A DNA stretch of 23,299 nucleotides, taken from a virus (lineage: Duplodnaviria > Heunggongvirae > Uroviricota > Caudoviricetes). Below the pieces are notes generated by a model. That model saw only the letters and a program-made list of their open reading frames with translations. It searched no databases and was not told where the DNA came from. Numbering within the stretch: position 1 is the first letter of the stretch; the number at the start of each line of letters is the position of its first letter. Position numbers and translations under genes: made by a program. The stretch is taken from the IMG/VR virus record IMGVR_UViG_2740892232_000005. The stretch is one strand, 5' to 3'. Below are positions 1,165-21,638 of the stretch, piece after piece.

Positions 1165-1391
1165 TTTCTTTCCTCTGTTATGCCATCACCCGCGCTCACC
1201 TGGACAGTATGCAGCGGAGACTGAAGCGCCGCAATGCAGGCTTGCCGTGTTGTGAGGTAAGGAGATTTTGGCTTGGTTGGATCTTTACGTGTTGCCTGTA
1301 GGCGGCCTGTTCGTATCCAGTTGGTGGCGGTTGGTCTGGATATCTGAAGAAACTGACAGGCCTCATCGAGTGTGAGGCTGTATGGCTCCAT
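1020..1391 (-). CDS. xis: Excisionase-like HTH DNA-binding protein (P22 Xis-like), overlapping the int start
   Basis: Internal ATG (1391..1389) of the 1020..1475 ORF, giving [31 protein letters not shown], an AlpA/excisionase-type HTH; sits immediately upstream of and overlapping int by about 145 nt; start overlaps the stop of the upstream gene (TAATG). Confidence 0.7.
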
Positions 1392-1696
1392 TATTTCACC
1401 TCTTGCTGTGTCATTGTTGAAAAATGGATAACAGCTCGTTGCTGCCAGACGATCCAACCGAGAGTCATATCCCATGCCATGTATTCGTTATCGCCGTTTT
1501 TTGCTCTCCGACGATCTACTAAGTCACCGAAACGCTTTTCCATGAATAATTCATAGGCTTCGCGTTCATCTGGCTCTACTTCCAGAGATACGAGTGCGAT
1601 TTCATAAGCACGGCGCTCAATATCGTCTCGAACCTCTAGGCTGCTGATTCGTTCTTTGATTTCTTTAATCAGTTCTTTATTGGTAAATGTGGTCAT
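1391..1696 (-). CDS. yfdT: YfdT-like prophage protein (101 aa), function unknown
   Basis: ORF of 101 aa in operon order and size matching the CPS-53 yfdP-Q-R-S-T cluster (from memory); acidic helical sequence; start overlaps the stop of the upstream gene. Confidence 0.6.
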   Translation of the reverse strand: MTTFTNKELIKEIKERISSLEVRDDIERRAYEIALVSLEVEPDEREAYELFMEKRFGDLVDRRRAKNGDNEYMAWDMTLGWIVWQQRAVIHFSTMTQQEVK

Positions 1697-2058
1697 TATG
1701 CTCCAGCCTCCGGTGCTTTTGGCATTACTGCCCAGTGAGTGATATTGACGTTTTCAAGGTCCCCGACCTGAAATGTCCACTGCCATTCTCCGGTTTCTTT
1801 TTGTCCCCAGGTGTACCAGAGAGAACGCCAGCCAATCAGCCAGCCTTCTCCATTAGCATCAAATAACAGAACACTTTCATTTGCTGGTGGCAGTTCAGCT
1901 GACACTGGTATTATTTTGTTTTCCAGTGCCGCACATTTAGCTTCAAGCGCGTCGAATTTACGTAACAGGTACTCAGCATTTGTTTCATTCACTTTCAGAT
2001 CTCGCGGTACACATTTCCCGCGAAGAAACCCTTCCATTTCGAAAACATTCATGCGCAT
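1696..2058 (-). CDS. yfdS: YfdS-like prophage protein (about 118-120 aa)
   Basis: ORF 120 aa, Trp-rich C-terminus; alternative ATG at 2052 overlaps the yfdR-like stop (ATGA); position and size match CPS-53 yfdS. Confidence 0.6.
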   Translation of the reverse strand: MRMNVFEMEGFLRGKCVPRDLKVNETNAEYLLRKFDALEAKCAALENKIIPVSAELPPANESVLLFDANGEGWLIGWRSLWYTWGQKETGEWQWTFQVGDLENVNITHWAVMPKAPEAGA

Positions 2059-2585
2059 TTGCGTAACTCCGATAAATCGTTAAAACGTTCCATAAACATC
2101 CCGTAGGCATGACCCGGTGCCAGTGGAATCACGTTGAACATCTCTGTTGCCGGGATGCCTTCCAGTACAGGCCAGAAAGAGCCATCATCAAGCCCGAGAT
2201 CGCGGCGTTCGGTTGCCAGCATGATAAGATCGGCATATTTCACGGGCGTACTCATAACTGGGGGTAACCCGTATTTCTCACGGATTACGGCGTCAATTTT
2301 TTCTTCCATCCGTTTATAGTCAGGAAGAAGGCGTTTCAGTGGAGCGGGAATATCCTGGCAATACGCTTCTGTTGCATCATGCATTAACGCTTCAAAAGCA
2401 AATTCCTGCGGCACCAGCTGGCTGCAAAGCACCGCATGTTGGGCGACACTGTAGAAGTGAGAAAGATGACCGGCAAAGCGGCAGATATTTGAAAGGGAAA
2501 CCGCGATATCGTTAATCACGATGTCGTCTTTATTTATCTTGTCATAATAAAAATGCTTCCCGGAAAAAGTTTTAATAAATGACAT
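2049..2585 (-). CDS. yfdR: HD-domain phosphohydrolase (YfdR-like 5'-deoxynucleotidase), 178 aa
   Basis: HD motif context (HAVLCSQL...ALMHDATEAY); internal ATG at 2585 with GGAG RBS gives 178 aa, the size of E. coli YfdR; the track ORF extends to 2612. Confidence 0.8.
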   Translation of the reverse strand: MSFIKTFSGKHFYYDKINKDDIVINDIAVSLSNICRFAGHLSHFYSVAQHAVLCSQLVPQEFAFEALMHDATEAYCQDIPAPLKRLLPDYKRMEEKIDAVIREKYGLPPVMSTPVKYADLIMLATERRDLGLDDGSFWPVLEGIPATEMFNVIPLAPGHAYGMFMERFNDLSELRKCA

Positions 2586-2712
2586 TTTGTTCTCCACGTA
2601 TATGCGCTGCACCGCGCTGAGTTTGGGTAAAAGGAAGCCCTCACCATCCGGTGATTATTGAGTTAATTACGTTTCCATAAATGCCCCCGCAGGGGCATTT
2701 GCAGTAATGAAA

Positions 2713-3537
2713 TCAGGCGGTGAAAGTACCAATAAAGGTTTCTACTTTGCTGTCTTTGAATTTCTCAACAAGCAGATCACGAAATTCGTTAGCCATATCT
2801 TCCTGCACCGCTTCCAGCTGAATAATGCGCAGAACCAGTACAGGACGATCGCCAGTGATAATGCTGAGGCGTAATTTAAACGGACGTTCTTTCAGACCTT
2901 CAAACGGAACGCATTTAAATTCAAATGCCACTGGCATAATGTCTTTGGTCTTCGCTTCGACAGATTCCATCAGGGAGCGTTTGCCGCTGAAGTCATTATC
3001 TTCAAAATCAGCGGTCTGGTTTGCTTCAATCGTGATTTTACGGACTGCCGCAGCCGCTTTTGTTGCCTGAATGGTGTCACCATTAGCATCAAAGCCCACA
3101 AGGTAGTCGGCCCAGTCTTCAATCCATTCTGCCAGTGACTTCTGGGAGTTACGCTCGCCGTTAACAGACAACAGGGCAGAGAACGGTGCTGTCTTTTTCA
3201 GTTTGAGAGTGGCGGTGTTATCTGCGTGACCTGGTTCATCAATAGTACCCAGGTTAAGTACACTGACGGCACGCATATTATCAGCATCGATAAAGCAGCG
3301 GGTGCCTTCATCTGCAAGATCTTTAGAATAACGGGTAAAGTCATCGATGCTGGCAGTGGAAAGCGCACCACGGAAACGGAAGCGATTTAAATTAAATTTT
3401 TCCAGATCATGAATGCGGAAATTCTCAGGCAATGCCACAGCATCGGCACCAATCTTACTGATAATTTCATTAACACCCTGAGCAGAAATAAGGGCATGGA
3501 TTTGATTAATTGCGGTTGCGTCTAAGTTCTGAGACAT
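2713..3537 (-). CDS. yfdQ: YfdQ-like protein (DUF2303 family), 274 aa
   Basis: 274-aa ORF with GAGGA RBS upstream of ATG 3537; size and position match CPS-53 yfdQ. Confidence 0.75.
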
Positions 3538-3602
3538 AATAAGTCCTCACTATATAAAGATATTCAGTGATGAGATAAATAATCAGTTAATTAAGAACGA
3601 TA

Positions 3603-3965
3603 TTAATGACCTGCTGCGCGTAGTTTTCCGTCAGGTTCACCGGCAAGAGTCAGTAATTGTCCCTGGTCTTCCTGCAGAATAGTCAGGCGACCACCGCGAT
3701 TGACATACATCGGCGTTTCGGTGGTGTCTTCTTCGGAAATTTTCCCGCGGTTAGTCGGGCGAACATATGAGAGTTTGTGTTTGATTTTCACACGGTTCTC
3801 ATCAAATGGTTCGATTTCCAGGTTGAGTGAGACCTTACCTTTGGTTTTCGTGTTCATCACACCGGAAGCGACTTCACTGAGAACTGCGCCGATTTTGGTT
3901 TCAAATACGCCGCCGTCCAGCTCCCCGATAAATGCCTGCACATCAGTACTGCGTTCGCTAGCCAT
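3603..3965 (-). CDS. yfdP: YfdP-like protein, 120 aa
   Basis: Track ORF 3603..4196 has an internal ATG at 3965 preceded by GAGGAG; it yields 120 aa (MASERSTDVQAF...), the size of YfdP. The upstream extension runs through a non-coding inverted-repeat region and is rejected. Confidence 0.65.
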   Translation of the reverse strand: MASERSTDVQAFIGELDGGVFETKIGAVLSEVASGVMNTKTKGKVSLNLEIEPFDENRVKIKHKLSYVRPTNRGKISEEDTTETPMYVNRGGRLTILQEDQGQLLTLAGEPDGKLRAAGH

Positions 3966-4566
3966 TTTGCTGCTCCTCATCATATCGACCCTGCAAGGTC
4001 GGTTGGTTTCTCCACAAAACAGAGAAGAACACCTGCGGTGGCAGCCGCCCGGATGGATTGGGTTATGAGCCTGTCGTCCGGTGATGCTCTTCTCTGTTTT
4101 GTAAAAAGAGCGGTACCAGCCGGAAGCAAGTGTACAAACTGGTACCGCCAAAGCAGTGGCTGTTGTGGTGGGGTTGTCACTCAGGCGTATGGTCAACCTG
4201 ACAATCCGGTGTCCTCAACGGGGAAAGAGTAACCCCGCCATACTTACCGCCGCGCCATTTCGCGGATTACCACAACGCTGAGAGCACTTAGCCAGTTACG
4301 GCACCACACTTTGTCGCGGCTCCATAAATGCCCTCATCGTTGCACCCTGGTCTCTTCCCAGGCGTCAAACCGGATCGCCACGCTGGTTAGGCGTCTTATC
4401 AGCATCATCATTGACTTGCACATTCCGGCTACCTGGTTTGTTTGCCCGAGCAAGAAGTGGATTGTCCCCTTTAACGTCCCCAGACCGCTAACGACGCATG
4501 TGCCATACGCCGTGTTACAACCAAATTTTGTTTGAATCTTGCCTGCCTCATGTTTCTTTTGGATAC

Positions 4567-4594
4567 ATTATGTATCTCATGGGTACATTGTCAA
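4567..4594 (-). promoter_or_regulatory. Candidate early-left promoter (PL-like): -35 TTGACA (4594..4589), 16-nt spacer, -10 CATAAT (4572..4567) on the minus strand, overlapping an operator-like palindrome
   Basis: Read directly from the reverse complement; near-consensus sigma70 hexamers; overlaps palindromes 4563-4577 (GATACATTATGTATC) and 4570-4588 (ATGTATCTCATGGGTACAT), the latter resembling the OR sites. Confidence 0.4.
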
Positions 4595-4597
4595 GTA

Positions 4598-4622
4598 TAA
4601 AAAAACCTGCCGAAGCAGGTTC
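4598..4622 (-). terminator. Rho-independent terminator downstream of cI (minus strand)
   Basis: On the minus strand: stem AACCTGC-TTCG-GCAGGTT followed by a T7 run (A-run 4599-4605 on the top strand), immediately 3' of the cI stop at 4634. Confidence 0.6.
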
Positions 4623-4633
4623 ATAAATATTGA

Positions 4634-5308
4634 TTAGGCCTTTATTGTGTATCTTCTTGGTTTTCCCGAGAAAATCACTGTACCAATTATAGAGCAATTA
4701 CCGTTAATCTTAATGTAAGGCTCAGGCCAGTTTGGGTTTAATGCTTTGAGATAACGCTGTGTTCCATCTTCTATCAATCGCTTGAAGGTGGTTTCGCCTG
4801 TATCGTGCATCAATGCAATAACGTCGTCACCGTGGCAGGCAGGGACTTCGGGATCAACAAAAATCATGTCTCCAGGGCGGTACTCATCAATCATTGAATC
4901 ACCAATCACCCGCAAGATATAAGTCATTTCGCCACAGGGTACAGGGCAGGGATACGTTTCTGCTGTGCTCAAATCAACCTCAGAATAGCCAACTTCTTTC
5001 CATGCTCCGGCCTGTACCCATGATATGACAGGGACTAACGTTATTTGTTTGTTAGTGATTGAAACATCAGGTTTTTTTGTGATGTTCGTTGTCTGGTGTT
5101 CTTGATCAAGCCATCCGACAGGCAGGTCGAAACATTTTTCGATGTGCCGTGCCATGCTGTCACCGATATTTTTAGTAGCGCCATCCCCCATAAACCTGCT
5201 GGTTTGGGTTGGCTCGCGATCAATCATGGTGGCAAAGGATGAATTTCCGCCAACACCATCTCTCAGTTTTCTGGCGTTAGACCGCCGGATGTCATGGATT
5301 GTTTTCAT
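4634..5308 (-). CDS. cI: Prophage repressor, CI-like, with N-terminal HTH and C-terminal S24 (LexA-like) autopeptidase domain
   Basis: 224 aa; C-terminal GDSM...K (Ser/Lys dyad) S24 peptidase signature, Ala-Gly (QAGAW) candidate cleavage site, N-terminal phage-CI-type HTH; divergent from the cro-like gene across an operator region. Confidence 0.9.
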   Translation of the reverse strand: MKTIHDIRRSNARKLRDGVGGNSSFATMIDREPTQTSRFMGDGATKNIGDSMARHIEKCFDLPVGWLDQEHQTTNITKKPDVSITNKQITLVPVISWVQAGAWKEVGYSEVDLSTAETYPCPVPCGEMTYILRVIGDSMIDEYRPGDMIFVDPEVPACHGDDVIALMHDTGETTFKRLIEDGTQRYLKALNPNWPEPYIKINGNCSIIGTVIFSGKPRRYTIKA

Positions 5309-5348: not shown

Positions 5349-5376
5349 TTGAAGGTTCATTTCAATCATGTAATAT
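5349..5376 (+). promoter_or_regulatory. Candidate PR promoter: -35 TTGAAG (5349-5354), 16-nt spacer, -10 TAATAT (5371-5376)
   Basis: Hexamers read from the sequence upstream of the cro-like start; the -10 overlaps operator B. Confidence 0.35.
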
Positions 5377-5393
5377 GTATACCGGAGGTACAT
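5375..5393. promoter_or_regulatory. Operator-like palindrome B (ATGTATACC-gga-GGTACAT) overlapping the PR -10 and cro RBS
   Basis: Inverted repeat read from the sequence; similar to site A and to the OL-like site at 4570-4588. Confidence 0.5.
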
Positions 5394-5630: not shown

Positions 5631-6194
5631 ATGAGGCTAACCGTGGGTAAGTATCACTGGAAAGTAGAAAAACAGCCTGAGTGGTACGTGAAAGCTGTCA
5701 GAAAAACTATCGCAGCGTTGCCGGGTGGTTACGCTGAAGCAGCTGACTGGCTGGATGTAACAGAGAACGCATTATTTAACCGCCTTCGTGCCGATGGCGA
5801 TCAGATTTTCCCGCTGGGATGGGCAATGGTTTTACAGCGCGCGGCTGGCACTCACTACATTGCGGATGCTGTCGCACAGTCTGCTGGTGGGGTGTTCGTA
5901 TCGCTTCCTGAAATTGAGGAAGTAGAGAACGCCGATATAAACCAGCGCCTGCTGGAAGTCATCGAACAGATCGGGAATTACTCAAAGCAGATTCGTTCGG
6001 CAATCGAAGATGGGGTCGTGGAGCCACACGAGCAGACAGCAATTAATGATGAGTTGTATCTGTCAATTTCGAAGCTCCAAGAGCATGCAGCACTGGTCTA
6101 CAAAATCTTTTGCGCTCCAGAAAAGAGTGACGCCCGCGAGTGTGCAGCTCCGGGCGTCGTGGCGTTTTGTGTCTGTGGAGAAACTAACGCATGA
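5631..6194 (+). CDS. CII-like / YdaT-like regulatory protein (positional call)
   Basis: 187-aa ORF immediately downstream of cro, the position of cII/YdaT-type genes in lambdoid immunity regions; family assignment is from weak recall, not a motif match. Confidence 0.55.
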   Translation: MRLTVGKYHWKVEKQPEWYVKAVRKTIAALPGGYAEAADWLDVTENALFNRLRADGDQIFPLGWAMVLQRAAGTHYIADAVAQSAGGVFVSLPEIEEVENADINQRLLEVIEQIGNYSKQIRSAIEDGVVEPHEQTAINDELYLSISKLQEHAALVYKIFCAPEKSDARECAAPGVVAFCVCGETNA

Positions 6195-7027
6195 ACAGTT
6201 TAACGGCAAATAACCGTTTGTCGCAACAGCTGGTGGTCAGTGTCGCTGAACACCTGTTGTTACGGCATGAATGCAGATTACCAAATTACCTGGCTGTAAG
6301 TAACCACAGAGAACTTTACCTGACTGTGGGGGGCGAGTTGTGCGGGAACTTAACCGCTGGTTTCGTGACGGAAGAGGGCTTTATGTCCATGTTATTCGTT
6401 GGGAACCAGAAACACAGCGCGTTATCTATCTTCGCAAAGACTACCCGCATGAGTGCTTTAGTCCTTTGTGGAAATTCAGGCGTGATTTTGTTGAGTGTGA
6501 AGGACCACCAGCACATTGATTCTGCCATTCCGGGACGTTACACTGTTCAGGCACCTTATAAAGCGGGTGACGGGATTGGCGTCCTGGAAATGTTATCGGC
6601 GATATATGACGCGCCAGCGTCTTTTTTATCGTCTGCGTCTGTGCACACCCAAATTATGGTGGGCTGGACGGGGGCACCGAAAGGTGCGCCGGTTTCCGAT
6701 AACGCCGGTTACGCCAACCCCGTTCAGTTCACCACCAGCGAAATTGGCGTTTCCGGTGGTGAAGGTAATTCACTGTTATCGGAGGCTGCCATCATGGCTA
6801 CTGTCCCAGCCCTCACTCGTCTGAATGATGAAGACTTACATAAACTCAGTTATGTAACAACTGCACTACGTGCTCTGCGCAAGGTAACTCTTTCGGATCC
6901 GCAGGCGCATCAGGTTTTGGTAGAAACCCTTCTTAACTTGCAGGCTGAACGTATTCGTCTGGCGGATAAGGCTAATTTTCATATTCACCGTCTCCTGAAT
7001 ATCAGCGGAGGGCATCGTCATGCTTAA
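6191..7027 (+). CDS. Hypothetical protein (278 aa), unknown function
   Basis: Long uninterrupted ORF; ATGA start/stop overlap with the upstream gene and ATGCTTAA overlap with the downstream gene indicate translational coupling; no motif recognised. Confidence 0.55.
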   Translation: MNSLTANNRLSQQLVVSVAEHLLLRHECRLPNYLAVSNHRELYLTVGGELCGNLTAGFVTEEGFMSMLFVGNQKHSALSIFAKTTRMSALVLCGNSGVILLSVKDHQHIDSAIPGRYTVQAPYKAGDGIGVLEMLSAIYDAPASFLSSASVHTQIMVGWTGAPKGAPVSDNAGYANPVQFTTSEIGVSGGEGNSLLSEAAIMATVPALTRLNDEDLHKLSYVTTALRALRKVTLSDPQAHQVLVETLLNLQAERIRLADKANFHIHRLLNISGGHRHA

Positions 7028-13306: not shown

Positions 13307-13605
13307 AAAATTCCTTAATACTGATAACTTGGCGCACTATACACACGTTCCTGAAGAAAGCTATAGTTTTTTGATGGGGTTGAAGATGGCTGGATGTCTA
13401 AAATAAACATTGCTTCATATGTTCAACTATGCGTTAATGATTGCGTCGGTTTGAAGAACAGACGATATACGAAGTAGTTTACTAAAGCAGTTCTCATTTC
13501 AGGTGTTATTCACTTATTCCTTCTTTGAGTCTCTCCAATTAAGTACGAAGTCGTTTCTGTTATACAAGCCATTTATGCCGAAAGGCTCAAGTTAAGGAAT
13601 GTAGA

Positions 13606-13821
13606 ATGTCAAATAAAATGACTGGTTTAGTAAAATGGTTTAACGCTGATAAAGGTTTTGGCTTTATTTCTCCTGTTGATGGTAGTAAAGATGTGTTTGT
13701 GCATTTTTCTGCGATTCAGAATGATAATTATCGAACCTTATTTGAAGGTCAAAAGGTTACCTTCTCTGTAGAGAGTGGTGCTAAAGGTCCTGCAGCAGCA
13801 AATGTCATAATTACTGATTAA
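13606..13821 (+). CDS. cspB: Cold-shock protein, CspB/CspG/CspI type (71 aa)
   Basis: [38 protein letters not shown] with RNP1/RNP2 motifs; AAGGA RBS; long upstream leader typical of csp genes. Confidence 0.92.
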
Positions 13822-14102
13822 AATTCATAGTTTGTCTGTATACGATAACGAAGAAGGCTGATGCCTGAGTGGAGATACAGACAGAGTGGTGAATATTGGA
13901 TCTCTTTAATAAATAGTAAGGAGGTCCAATACATGAAACAATGGCCAGCATATTTGGCAATAACTTAATCAGGAAAAGTATGCTAACCATTGTGGTGAAG
14001 TGCAGGTTTGCTGCATGAATAGTTTTACAGCAGAAGCTAACTGCTGGCATAGCAAAACAAAGTGCGTAAGTGGATGACTCCCACAAAAAGTACCACAATA
14101 TT

Positions 14103-18587: not shown

Positions 18588-19094
18588 ATGGCCTTTTTAT
18601 TGAATAAAAGTGATATGGCCTCCTCCATCGGTATCTCTGTTCAGGCATTTGATAAATGGGGCGTTCCTCCTGTCGAGCGTCGGGGGAGGGAAGTTTTTTA
18701 TGACGTTAAAACTGTACTGGAGATAGATCGCGAGCGGCGACAACACAATCATAGAACACCTGATGACGGGGGCGATCTGGAGGAAAGGCTGCTTCGGGCC
18801 AGAGCTGAACTGACAGAAGAACAGGCCGTAGCTCAAAAACTTAAAAATCAGGTAACCGAAGGTAAGCTCATCGATTCAGACTTCTGCGTTTTCGCCCTCA
18901 GCAAGCTGGCGATGGCATTGTCCAGTACGCTTGATTCTATTCCGTTATCCATGCAGCGACAGTTCCCGGATTTAACGCCACGTCATCTTGACCATCTGAA
19001 AACCCTTATTGCGAAGGGCGCAAATCAGTGTGCGCGGGCAGGGGATAAATTACCGGATTTGCTGGATGAATATATCAGAGCAACAACTGAATAA
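18588..19094 (+). CDS. nu1: Terminase small subunit (lambda gpNu1-like)
   Basis: N-terminal winged-HTH region and C-terminal LSMQRQFPDL...LPDLLDEYI resemble lambda Nu1; ATG 18588 preceded by GGAGAGGAG (alternative ATG 18570); overlaps the terminase large subunit start as in lambda. Confidence 0.85.
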   Translation: MAFLLNKSDMASSIGISVQAFDKWGVPPVERRGREVFYDVKTVLEIDRERRQHNHRTPDDGGDLEERLLRARAELTEEQAVAQKLKNQVTEGKLIDSDFCVFALSKLAMALSSTLDSIPLSMQRQFPDLTPRHLDHLKTLIAKGANQCARAGDKLPDLLDEYIRATTE

Positions 19095-21638
19095 TCTGAT
19101 GGCTGCCGTTTCGGTTGCGCTGCAGCCTCTGGTCAGGGTTGTACCGATGACGGCAGTTGAATGGGCTGACCAGTATTATTATCTGCCGAAAGAATCCTCA
19201 TACGGTGACGGCGAATGGAAAACGCTGCCGTTCCAGATCGCCATCATGAACAGTATGGGGAATGATCAGGTCCGCACTGTTAATCTGATTAAATCTGCCC
19301 GTGTTGGCTATACAAAGATGTTGCTGGGGGTGGTCGGGTATTTTATTGAGCATAAATCCCGAAACAGTCTGCTTTTTCAGCCCACGGATTCTGCCGCTGA
19401 AGATTTTATGAAGTCTCACGTGGAGACGACGATTAGGGACGTGCCATGCCTGAAAGACCTTTCCCCATGGCTGGGTCGTAAACATCGTGATAATACCCTC
19501 ACGCTGAAACGCTTTTCATCGGGCGTCGGTTTCTGGTGCCTGGGCGGCGCTGCCGCCAAAAACTACCGTGAAAAATCCGTGGATGTGGTCTGCTATGACG
19601 AACTTTCCTCGTTCGAACCGGATGTTGAAAAAGAGGGTTCGCCAACCCTGCTGGGGGATAAACGTATTGAGGGCTCTGTATGGCCAAAATCCATTCGCGG
19701 CTCGACGCCTAAAATCAAAGGCTCCTGCCAGATCGAAAAAGCCGCTAACGAGTCGGCACATTTCATGCGTTTTTATGTGCCCTGCCCGCACTGTGGGGAG
19801 GCGCAGTATCTGAAATTTGGCGATGAATCCACGCCTTTTGGCCTTAAATGGGAGAAGGACAGCCCCGAAAGCGTTTTCTACCTCTGTGAACATCATGGCT
19901 GCGTGATCCATCAGTCTGAGCTTGACCAGAGCAACGGGCGGTGGATCTGTGAAAACACGGGGATGTGGACCCGTGACGGTCTGACGTTTTTCAGCGCCGC
20001 GGATAATGAAATTCCGCCGCCGCGCTCCATCACGTTCCATATCTGGACGGCGTACAGTCCGTTCACCACCTGGGTACAGATAGTCTATGACTGGCTGGAT
20101 GCACTGNNNNNNNNNNCATGTGGACCCGTGACGGCCTGATGTTTTTCAGCGCCCGGGGTGATGAAATTCCGCCGCCGCGCTCCATCACTTTCCATATCTG
20201 GACGGCGTACAGTCCGTTCACCACCTGGGTACAGATAGTCTATGACTGGCTGGATGCACTGAAAGATCCCAACGGCCTGAAAACCTTTGTGAACACCACG
20301 CTGGGCGAGACCTGGGAAGAGGCCGTGGGCGAAAAACTCGATCACCAGGTACTGATGGATAAGGTCGTGCATTACACGGCGGCGGTGCCAGCCCGGGTGG
20401 TTTATCTGACGGCGGGCATTGACTCGCAGNNNNNNNNNNACGTCCCGATGAGGAAGAGACGCTGTTACGTGTGGATGCGGCGATCAACAAAAAATACCGC
20501 CATGCAGACGGAACCGAAATGACCATTTCCCGTGTCTGCTGGGACATCGGGGGTATCGATGGCGAAATCGTTTATCAGAGGTCAAAAAAACACGGTGTTT
20601 TCCGGGTGCTGCCGGTAAAAGGCGCATCTGTCTATGGCAAGCCGGTGATCACCATGCCAAAAACCCGCAATCAGCGGGGCGTGTATCTGTGTGAAGTGGG
20701 GACAGACACCGCAAAAGAAATTCTCTATGCCCGTATGAAAGCCGAGCCCACGCCTGCGGATGAATCCACGTCGTATGCCATCCGTTTTCCTGATGATCCG
20801 GAGATTTTTTCGCAGACAGAGGCGCAGCAACTGGTCGCGGAAGAGCTTGTGGAGAAGTGGGAAAAAGGAAAGATGCGTCTGCTGTGGGATAACAAAAAGC
20901 GGCGTAACNNNNNNNNNNCGAAACCGTTTTGAGATGTATGTCTGGGGATGGGCTCCGGGAGAGGAAGCCTTTCTGGTGGATAAAATCATCATTATGGGGC
21001 GTCCCGATGAGGAAGAGACGCTGTTACGTGTGGATGTGGCGATCAACAAAAAATACCGCCATGCAGACGGAACCGAAATGACCATTTCCCGTGTCTGCTG
21101 GGACACCGGGGGGATCGATGGCGAAATTGTCTATCAGAGGTCAAAAAAACACGGTGTTTTCCGGGTGCTGCCGGTAAAAGGTGCATCTGTTTATGGCAAG
21201 CCGGTGATCACCATGCCAAAAACCCGCAATCAGCGGGGCGTGTATCTGTGCGAAGTGGGGACGGACACCGCAAAAGAAATTCTCTATGCCCGTATGAAAG
21301 CCGATCCCACGCCTGCGGATGAAGCCACGTCGTATGCCATCCGTTTTCCTGATGATCCGGAGATTTTTTCGCAGACAGAGGCGCAGCAACTGGTGGCGGA
21401 AGAGCTTGTGGAGAAGTGGGAAAAAGGAAAGATGCGTCTGCTGTGGGATAACAAAAAGCGGCGTAACGAAGCGCTGGACTGCCTGGTGTATGCCTACGCG
21501 GCATTACGTGTGTCCGTGCAACGCTGGCAGCTTGATCTGGCTGTACTGGCAAAATCCCGGGAAGAAGAGACGACCCGGCCAACCCTTAAAGAACTGGCAG
21601 CGAAGCTGTCCGGAGGAGTGAATGGTTACAGTCGCTGA
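19066..21638 (+). CDS. A: Terminase large subunit (lambda gpA-like); span inflated by three scaffold gaps and two redundant variant segments
   Basis: MNISEQQ...AVEWADQYYYLPKESSYGDGEWKTLPFQIAIMN...TWVQIVYDWLDAL...WDNKKRRNEALDCLVYAYAALR is collinear with lambda gpA; true length about 642 aa once duplicated segments 20118-20261 and 20441-20908 are removed. Confidence 0.85.
19963..20106 (+). repeat. Contig-end overlap: 144 nt that reappears at 20118-20261 with about 6 mismatches
   Basis: Direct comparison of the sequence on both sides of the N-run. Confidence 0.9.
20107..20116. other. Assembly gap (10 N)
   Basis: Run of n. Confidence 1.
20430..20439. other. Assembly gap (10 N)
   Basis: Run of n. 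Confidence 1.
20441..20908 (+). repeat. Redundant variant copy (about 97-98% identical) of terminase segment 21000-21467, bounded by two N-gaps
   Basis: Direct comparison: same reading frame and protein segment (RPDEEETLLRVD...WDNKKRRN) with roughly 10 SNPs. Confidence 0.9.
20909..20918. other. Assembly gap (10 N)
   Basis: Run of n. Confidence 1.

Follow-up and report, generated by a model that had tools for sequence, protein, structure and literature searches.

What does the yfdP-yfdQ-yfdR-yfdS-yfdT cluster do in the early leftward operon of a lambdoid prophage, and does it act as a single unit? The question is raised by a sequence of 23,299 nucleotides (nt) from a virus of the class Caudoviricetes (IMG/VR record IMGVR_UViG_2740892232_000005; this whole stretch is called the window below), in which the five genes lie on the minus strand, downstream of a cI-like repressor gene and upstream of xis and int, as the original prediction had it. 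That prediction, made from the sequence alone, saw in them an early-expressed host-takeover or nucleotide-pool module of an apparently intact phage, rather than cryptic debris.

The cluster itself is already known and ordinary, because it is annotated in the Shigella flexneri phage SfV, has been studied in Escherichia coli K-12, and work on its relation to DnaA and initiation is in print. A paper of 2025 remarked on it once more as a cassette that is common in early-left operons, and by itself it adds little. The parts worth a further look are a structured leader RNA directly upstream of yfdP, which appears to be undescribed, and the pairing of yfdP with yfdQ. Both bear on early transcription and DNA handling in lambdoid phages that lack N and a Rec module.

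Five genes and one obligate pair

Five consecutive open reading frames (ORFs) occupy positions 1391-3965 of the minus strand, in the order yfdT-yfdS-yfdR-yfdQ-yfdP, and encode proteins of 101, 120, 178, 274 and 120 residues. These coordinates and lengths, and the HD motif of the middle ORF, are those of the original prediction, and protein alignment to K-12 confirms the names that it proposed. Full-length identity to the K-12 proteins is 99.2% for YfdP, 99.3% for YfdQ, 100% for YfdR, 99.2% for YfdS and 97.0% for YfdT. At the DNA level the cluster is 98.7% identical to CPS-53 of K-12 MG1655 across 2594 nt, and order, orientation, lengths and the yfdR/yfdS and yfdS/yfdT overlaps all match. The five genes are real conserved genes and not chance ORFs; all are intact and have ribosome-binding sites, and their differences from K-12 are mainly synonymous (in yfdT, one synonymous and three non-synonymous). 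A program-made ORF list extends two of them, to 187 residues (GTG at 2612) and 197 residues (TTG at 4196). The ATG starts which give the 178-residue YfdR and the 120-residue YfdP are correct, since a Shine-Dalgarno sequence stands at each, the K-12 annotation agrees, and YfdP homologues from 20 other taxa share the start residue.

YfdQ matches DUF2303 over profile positions 2-269 of 269 (309.9 bits against a Pfam cut-off of 26.6, E = 1.7e-92). YfdS belongs to PHROG 583 (E = 3.9e-82); its match to DUF551 over residues 50-117 is borderline (22.1 bits against a gathering cut-off of 22), and its N-terminal residues 1-49 are common to other PHROGs. YfdT belongs to PHROG 660 (E = 1.9e-30); the gene is truncated in E. 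coli strain K56-43-un.

The build of the cluster was surveyed in 80 loci of different species from the GTDB collection, 79 of which retain upstream DNA. An IMG/VR search with the YfdQ alignment gave only near-identical loci; gene context was instead taken from the GTDB scan and from tblastn searches of phage records. In all 79 loci (79/79) yfdP lies directly upstream of yfdQ. The other genes are less constant: yfdR follows in 59/80, yfdS in 6/80 and yfdT in 4/80. The cluster is pieced together from cassettes that can be exchanged, a mosaic and not one functional unit. Within it, yfdP-yfdQ is the real conserved unit, an obligate pair found far beyond enterobacteria, yfdR is frequent, and yfdS and yfdT are sporadic.

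A YfdP homologue stands immediately before YfdQ in four distant phages, and the synteny is retained from Escherichia to Marinobacter, Vibrio and Xanthomonas phages. The gene order of the Vibrio podophage 36E38.1 is DnaQ-like exonuclease, YfdP, YfdQ, SSB; in Xanthomonas phage Tabio and Vibrio phage vB_VpP_1 the YfdP homologue also directly precedes YfdQ. The Stx phage P13374 has the order Gam, RecT, Exo, SSB, YfdP, YfdQ. Its yfdP homologue (L088 4558-4934) is split into two overlapping ORFs, ORF18 and ORF19, given as separate hypothetical proteins, probably by a frameshift. In 13 of 26 diverse loci, the neighbouring gene upstream on the same strand encodes a CI-like S24 repressor. Genes for YqaJ, RecT, ERF, SSB and exonucleases recur near yfdPQ in the sampled neighbourhoods, where Tad2-like and T7 gp5.9-like genes also occur.

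The 3.7-kb region matches 4946 of 5426 (91%) complete E. coli genomes, with the genes annotated yfdP/Q/R/S/T, and it is found at 95-97% DNA identity in isolated phages (2H10, mEp460, Ayreon, the PhiR series, Stx2c-converting phages, and SfV as orf28-orf32). Among phage gene pairs in E. coli to which no function has been assigned, yfdP-yfdQ is one of the most widespread. Plasmids seldom carry yfdQ (23 of 72,556 records, most of which look by record size like mislabelled chromosomes or phage-sized episomes), and it is therefore not a plasmid leading-region gene.

Models of YfdP and YfdQ match no solved fold, and in particular not Rad52, RecT, Erf, Gp2.5 or an OB-fold. A sequence search of the PDB returned entry 9o7m, named "YfdQ Protein", which contains 36 chains of one sequence, about 40% identical to YfdQ. 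The example chain is labelled C, so that the labels A and B may stand for different molecules. The sequence comes from a CP2-like Xanthomonas phage (cf. L086 4004-4828), being 98.8% identical to that of MET23-P3. The YfdP homologue and the downstream 471-residue protein of the same Xanthomonas phage group are absent from the PDB, and no publication on the 9o7m structure was found.

A structured leader RNA at the head of the leftward operon

Directly upstream of yfdP lies a conserved structured leader RNA, predicted to fold as a closed three-way junction. It consists of a closing stem P1 of 22-25 base pairs (bp), a stem P2 with the invariant loop GGCUCAUAACCCAAUCC, a hairpin P3 of variable length and a small hairpin P4, which sits just before the ribosome-binding site of the first gene. 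The 127-nt core has a folding energy of -57.8 kcal/mol (z = -7.0 against shuffles) and the 211-nt leader one of -91 kcal/mol (z = -6.1). The 200 nt upstream of yfdP in 77 species loci have a median z of -3.55.

An alignment of the leaders of 29 species, which are 55-90% identical, contains 40 consensus pairs, 15 of them with compensatory changes. Its cells are paired in 98.1% of cases; shuffled controls reach 91.8% (0/500), and sliding the 3' partners gives 40-57%. With a covariance model, the sense strand obtains 110-146 bits and the antisense strand 25-42 bits. This gap and the many G-U pairs indicate an RNA on the yfdP-sense strand. The model finds one copy per locus, always at the same position. 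Weaker matches occur in Yersinia, Serratia, Rahnella, Proteus and Providencia, and there is none in K-12, where the element has been lost, or in the Vibrio, Xanthomonas and Marinobacter loci.

The loop motif is present in more than 120 IMG/VR stretches, and 79 of these, in which full-length model matches score 87-134 bits, were read for downstream genes. In 53 of the 79, yfdP follows 106-133 nt downstream of the motif. Twelve have no yfdP, and yfdR lies downstream of the leader. A homologue of RdgC (PF04381) is the first gene in at least eight (L176, L200, L206, L213, L214, L220, L245 and L250), in the position of yfdP-yfdQ and immediately after the leader; yfdR comes next in four of these. 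In one stretch the leader runs straight into xis-int. As the leader precedes yfdP, rdgC, yfdR or xis, it belongs to the start of the leftward operon and not to yfdP itself, and yfdPQ and rdgC are alternative first cassettes. The covariation-supported RNA thereby marks the start of this operon in dozens of enterobacterial prophages.

A known RNA and a coding region were both considered for this element and rejected. Searches with the 4227 covariance models of Rfam gave nothing that overlaps 3983-4109, at gathering scores or at E <= 1. The leader model (R1) reaches at most 17 bits on HK022 (record positions 18000-32000) and at most 16 bits on HK639, and none of these hits lies on the annotated putL. 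The lengths of the element differ between loci by non-multiples of 3, and the apparent start codon of some loci meets a stop in others. A limited literature search found no description of it.

In phage lambda, a leader hairpin cleaved by RNase III lies upstream of N. By analogy, the leader described here may be an RNase III-sensitive gate on the translation or the stability of the first gene. It may instead be an RNA-based antitermination device unrelated to put.

The DNA between cI and the leader has the organization expected of an early-left transcription unit, which the original prediction had placed here. The promoter-like site is overlapped by palindromes that also occur between cI and cro. 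They have the form ATGTAYC...GRTACAT (e.g., ATGTATC..GGTACAT) and stand at 4570, 5326 and 5375. From their sequences, the repeats and the promoter-like site show the layout expected of oL/pL and oR/pR. The complete order is pL and operators, a variable slot, a hairpin with a U-run, the structured leader RNA, yfdP-yfdQ, yfdR-yfdS-yfdT, xis and int (Table 1).

Compared with SfV and PhiR49_1, only 3966-4150 and 4537-4639 are conserved, and the slot between them is replaced by other DNA: orf33 and annotated terminators in SfV, plus-strand ORFs in PhiR49_1. An N-like protein encoded in 4151-4536 was looked for and rejected, the ORFs there having just 20-40 codons and none being convincing. The U-run of the terminator-like element doubles as the base of leader stem P1. 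In other species, by reading of the alignments, the sequence of the hairpin stem differs while the pairing and the U-run are kept, so the element looks like an intrinsic terminator. The terminator scan, which allowed loops of 3-8 nt only, missed it. Many loci also share, at about 4160-4175 on the minus strand, a short hairpin with a CACCACAAC-like motif after it. A tRNA-like element upstream of the leader was discarded as a candidate, a tRNA being present there in only two Phytobacter loci.

Table 1. Positions of the cluster, its control region and other features in the window
Feature	Position	Strand	Description
Conserved structured leader RNA	3983-4109	minus	about 127 nt, three-way junction directly upstream of yfdP
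yfdP	3603-3965	minus	120 residues, PF27127; first gene of the cluster, obligate partner of yfdQ
yfdQ	2713-3537	minus	274 residues, DUF2303 (PF10065)
yfdR	2049-2585	minus	178 residues, HD-domain phosphohydrolase; annotated 5'-deoxynucleotidase, published DnaA-binding protein
yfdS	1696-2058	minus	120 residues; shared N-terminal segment and C-terminal DUF551; 10-nt overlap with yfdR
yfdT	1391-1696	minus	101 residues, without known domain; start overlaps yfdS stop
cI-like repressor gene	4634-5308	minus	ORF; annotated cI or LexA-family/UmuD-like in related records
Terminator-like hairpin of cI	4622-4603	minus	from terminator scan
Putative pL, TTGACA-16-CATAAT	4594-4567	minus	11/12 promoter-consensus matches; about 600 nt upstream of the cluster
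Operator-like 20-nt repeats	4549-4568, 4569-4588	minus	overlap the pL-like site; third copy of the family at 5374-5393 in the cI-cro spacer
Variable slot	4151-4536	minus	GC-rich, no convincing ORF
Terminator-like element	4149-4103	minus	GC-rich hairpin 4149-4110 and U-run 4107-4103; abuts the leader RNA
Excisionase-like helix-turn-helix gene	1020-1475	minus	HTH_17; PHROG 2907 excisionase, E = 4e-45; same transcription unit, downstream
Tyrosine integrase gene	1-1164	minus	Phage_integrase, E = 5.5e-47; last gene of the leftward unit
Chi sites	1883, 5883, 6229, 7775, 8585, 9837, 11141, 11412, 15890	plus	
Chi sites	6505, 6732, 8941, 11541	minus	

Possible roles of YfdR and of the YfdP-YfdQ pair

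YfdR belongs to PHROG 318, "deoxyribonucleoside 5' monophosphate phosphatase" (E = 1.5e-109), and aligns over residues 18-175 with the HD protein Atu1052 (PDB 2gz4, E = 1.3e-13), including the metal-binding residues. Its HD motif in the window reads A-Q-H50, M-H69-D70-A-T-E73, D78 and D119; as supposed originally, these residues are conserved, H50, H69, D70, E73, D78 and D119 being retained in at least 95% of 60 homologues. The window and K-12 copies of yfdR differ by 14 synonymous and no non-synonymous changes. However, YfdR scores below the curated YfbR cut-offs (24.3 bits against 25.9 for PF12917, 19.9 against 122 for the NCBIfam equivalog NF003009), and is therefore a relative, not an orthologue, of YfbR.

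Noguchi and Katayama (2016) found yfdQRST as a multicopy suppressor of hda-185 and showed that initiation at oriC is inhibited by multicopy yfdQ and yfdR together with yfdS or yfdT (PMC4776307). YfdR binds domain I of DnaA via Phe46 and competes moderately with DiaA and DnaB (PMC4776307). The literature on which the original prediction drew, namely the inhibition of replication initiation by CPS-53 yfdQRST and the YfdR-DnaA interaction, is thus accurate. With 100% sequence identity, the published biochemistry of K-12 YfdR should carry over to the YfdR of the window.

On this basis, the cluster can be read as the accessory portion of a leftward early operon, under repressor control, in a lambdoid prophage of the SfV/LLS type, in which YfdR and its partners damp host initiation, a reading with an even chance of being right. 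The loss of CI, at induction or infection, would open pL. Transcription would pass the leader into yfdP-yfdQ, yfdR-yfdS-yfdT, xis and int, and the proteins would presumably be made early, before or with Xis and Int. YfdR, aided by YfdQ and YfdS/T, would occupy DnaA domain I and lower initiation on the host chromosome. The freed DnaB and replisome would go to the phage, which in the window shows only a DnaD/O-like initiator and no recognisable helicase loader. YfdP-YfdQ would have a separate role, most probably on DNA as a large oligomer, and the leader RNA would control whichever gene of the operon comes first.

This reading is supported by the 97-100% identity to the K-12 proteins, the operator-like control sites, the CI-like S24 neighbour in half of the diverse loci, the conserved HD residues and synonymous bias of yfdR, the presence of the cluster in isolated phages, and the DnaA literature. 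The replisome-capture step is supported because the scanned early-right ORFs include no P- or DnaC-like loader and only an HTH_36/DnaD_N replication protein, and because LLS has been described alike (PMC12315714). A role of YfdPQ on DNA is supported by the neighbouring SSB, DnaQ-like, RecT-Exo-Gam and YqaJ genes, by RdgC in the same slot and by the 36-chain YfdQ homologue.

Several observations weigh against it. The terminator-like hairpin lies between pL and yfdP, and transcription from pL into the cluster is assumed. Deletion of yfdQRST in K-12 has no effect on initiation or on hydroxyurea resistance, the inhibition was seen only with multicopy plasmids, and its authors allow for an overexpression artefact (PMC4776307); host takeover is deduced from multicopy overexpression. 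The gene most tightly linked to yfdQ in the present survey, yfdP, is dispensable in the initiation assay (PMC4776307). Moreover, yfdPQ occurs without yfdR in 21 of the 80 loci and in lytic-type phages, so its primary role cannot depend on YfdR or DnaA. Finally, neither YfdP nor YfdQ has a fold or family assignment for DNA binding. As for the host-takeover module predicted originally, the exclusion of debris is upheld by the constraint on yfdR and by the viable phages that carry the cluster, and the takeover itself is not a new idea: Noguchi and Katayama had already proposed a benefit to the propagating ancestral phage and noted the SfV homologues (PMC4776307).

Beyond this reading, two linked novelties can be proposed, tentatively and with less confidence: the leader would be a new cis-regulatory class of pL operons, and YfdP-YfdQ a new two-protein, large-oligomer system for DNA transactions or counter-defence. 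In lambdoid phages without a recognised N, the leader class may be a processive RNA antiterminator that has no relation to put, or else a switch gated by RNase III. If so, such an antiterminator or switch could explain delayed-early expression, including that of xis and int. The YfdP-YfdQ system, if real, would have no fold relatives and be common to temperate and lytic phages of Gammaproteobacteria.

An unlikely, but the least unlikely, alternative is that YfdP-YfdQ is an unrecognised recombination, annealing or end-protection module which, in Chi-rich lambdoid phages devoid of a Rec module, would partly replace Red/Erf functions, YfdQ assembling on DNA into large rings or filaments and YfdP serving as its partner. 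In the window, neither a lambda-type recombination module nor a recognised N-like antiterminator was found. None of its scanned ORFs was recognised as encoding an exonuclease, an annealing protein, Gam/Abc2 or a helicase loader, and the five cluster proteins have no Pfam or PHROG match to a recombinase, exonuclease or anti-RecBCD protein. The 23.3 kb contain nine copies of the Chi sequence GCTGGTGG on the plus strand and four on the minus strand, a strand-skewed distribution (13 against about 0.8 expected, or about 0.4 per strand). The many Chi sites and the absence of a Rec module fit the LLS-type "no Rec module, high Chi" class of lambdoid phages. The alternative is also favoured by the SSB, DnaQ-like exonuclease, RecT-Exo-Gam, YqaJ or ERF genes that adjoin yfdPQ in unrelated phages, by its positional interchange with the DNA-binding RdgC, and by the 36-chain assembly of 9o7m, whose chain labelling could leave room for other molecules. 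A mild sensitivity to methyl methanesulfonate (MMS) and H2O2 has been reported for yfdQ mutants of K-12 (PMC4776307). However, Casjens, Smith and colleagues judged such a role unlikely, as complete Rec modules are found alongside the cluster, for example in ArgO145 (PMC12315714), and P13374 was seen here to be a similar case. There is no structural likeness to the Rad52, RecT, Erf or Gp2.5 folds, and the YfdP homologue of the source phage of 9o7m is not in the PDB.

Somewhat less probable still is that YfdR is mainly an enzyme, an HD phosphohydrolase which reshapes the deoxynucleotide pool or destroys a nucleotide-derived defence signal or toxic nucleotide, its binding to DnaA being incidental; the cluster would then serve anti-defence or nucleotide metabolism. 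The strict conservation of the catalytic H...HD...D residues in the 60 homologues, the strong purifying selection on yfdR and the PHROG 318 and NCBI annotation as a deoxyribonucleoside 5'-monophosphate phosphatase are in favour of this. Early-left operons also often hold counter-defence genes, such as the Tad2-like and T7 gp5.9-like genes of the sampled neighbourhoods. On the contrary, YfdR is not an orthologue of YfbR, no substrate of it is known, and its reported nucleotide affinities lie far below those of the YfbR-type enzyme (PMC4776307, citing Zimmerman et al.), so that the nucleotide-pool module of the original prediction is weak. None of the five proteins matches a PADLOC model at E <= 0.01, and a defence or anti-defence module was rejected on this result.

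It is improbable that the genes are "morons" which benefit the lysogen through tolerance to stress (H2O2, acid and MMS, as reported for K-12 CPS-53), and not lytic growth. The matches in E. coli genomes often lie within decayed prophages, deletion phenotypes of K-12 yfdQ and yfdS are published, and yfdPQ is expressed in stationary phase in an SrsR-dependent manner. However, the promoter of the window and its intact relatives is covered by operators and should be silent in a lysogen, and K-12, which keeps 19 nt upstream of yfdP, has lost promoter and leader, so that its regulation is secondary. Moreover, yfdPQ is present in small Vibrio and Xanthomonas phage genomes with no repressor or integrase in the stretches read.

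That the cluster is a functionless hitch-hiker can practically be dismissed: the K-12 deletion result and the broken copies (yfdP in P13374, yfdT in K56-43-un) agree with it, but it is already contradicted by the conservation data, namely the five intact ORFs with ribosome-binding sites, the mostly synonymous differences from K-12, the wide yfdP-yfdQ synteny and the covariation in the upstream leader.

The early-right ORFs that were scanned encode CII-like, Ash-family, HTH_36/DnaD_N, PerC, Dam, LexA-like, RusA, KilA-N and DUF968 proteins; further right lie a Q-like antiterminator gene, lysis genes and terminase genes. The "apparently intact" state that had been supposed for the phage is not supported. 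Comparison with phage 21 and the E. coli K56-43-un prophage, whose terL is an intact 1929-nt gene, shows that two partial duplications split the large terminase gene (19009-21638) into four ORFs (19963-20106 and 20118-20261, 95% identical; 20441-20908 and 21000-21467, 97% identical). The broken terL reflects either a defective prophage or an assembly artefact.

Two other RNA elements are present on the plus strand. Rfam matches above gathering scores to the Hfq-binding small RNA isrK and to C4 antisense RNA (6551-6627 and 6652-6739) fall within what was read as an Ash-family ORF (6191-7027); together they resemble an antisense immunity element of the P1/P7 or Gifsy type. A full-length cspA-type thermoregulator leader (13445-13884, 156.7 bits) precedes a 71-residue cold-shock gene (13606-13821); it comes after the Q-like gene and before the lysis genes, where the DNA is AT-rich (GC about 0.35-0.40).

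Comparison with known systems

CPS-53 (KplE1) of K-12 contains yfdP-T (b2359-b2363), five genes of the same order and lengths as those of the window. The short sequence left upstream of yfdP no longer includes pL, the operators, the hairpin or the leader RNA, and the cluster abuts the truncated replication gene yfdO, which carries SrsR-bound repeats. Of the K-12 xis only the fragment ypdJ is left, and torI has taken its place; ypdJ (L001 12095-12235) matches the N-terminus of the xis-like gene of the window and is thus a truncated remnant. A yfdP-T block without promoter, leader and its own xis-int indicates that CPS-53 is a patchwork.

In SfV, as in 2H10, mEp460, Ayreon, PhiR49_1 and Stx2c phages, the cluster has the same place, from cI to xis-int. 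SfV and its relatives are viable phages, about 95-97% identical in DNA to the cluster of the window. SfV has the additional orf33 and annotated terminators between pL and the leader.

The trio of yfbR-like, yfdQ and yfdP genes is common in early-left operons, such as gp37-39 of LLS and gp35-37 of ST64B (Genome Res 2025, PMC12315714). The LLS class has no exo/bet/gam, abundant Chi and a single O-like replication gene (PMC12315714), and the window shares these features, being Chi-rich with a single DnaD/O-like replication gene. LLS itself is related to ST64B and phiNP and not to the window prophage; the YfdQ of phiNP is 59% identical to that of the window. The publication on LLS describes neither the yfdP-yfdQ pairing nor the leader RNA (PMC12315714).

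YfdR has the HD fold and the metal-binding residues in common with E. coli YfbR and Atu1052. It differs from YfbR in scoring below the family cut-offs, in its much lower reported nucleotide affinities and in its reported second activity, the binding of DnaA.

The leader RNA resembles the put RNAs and the lambda N leader in being a cis-encoded structured RNA at the start of a lambdoid pL operon. With the put RNAs, only the position near pL is similar, even if its length is close to that of the 126-nt element of HK639 annotated "putL-like antiterminator RNA". The put RNAs of HK022 and HK639 consist of two adjacent stem-loops of about 70 nt, whereas the predicted fold of the window leader is a closed three-way junction. 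The put RNAs also lie upstream of terminators, whereas in the window the terminator-like hairpin is upstream of the RNA. The P1 duplex of 22-25 bp is long enough to be a substrate of RNase III.

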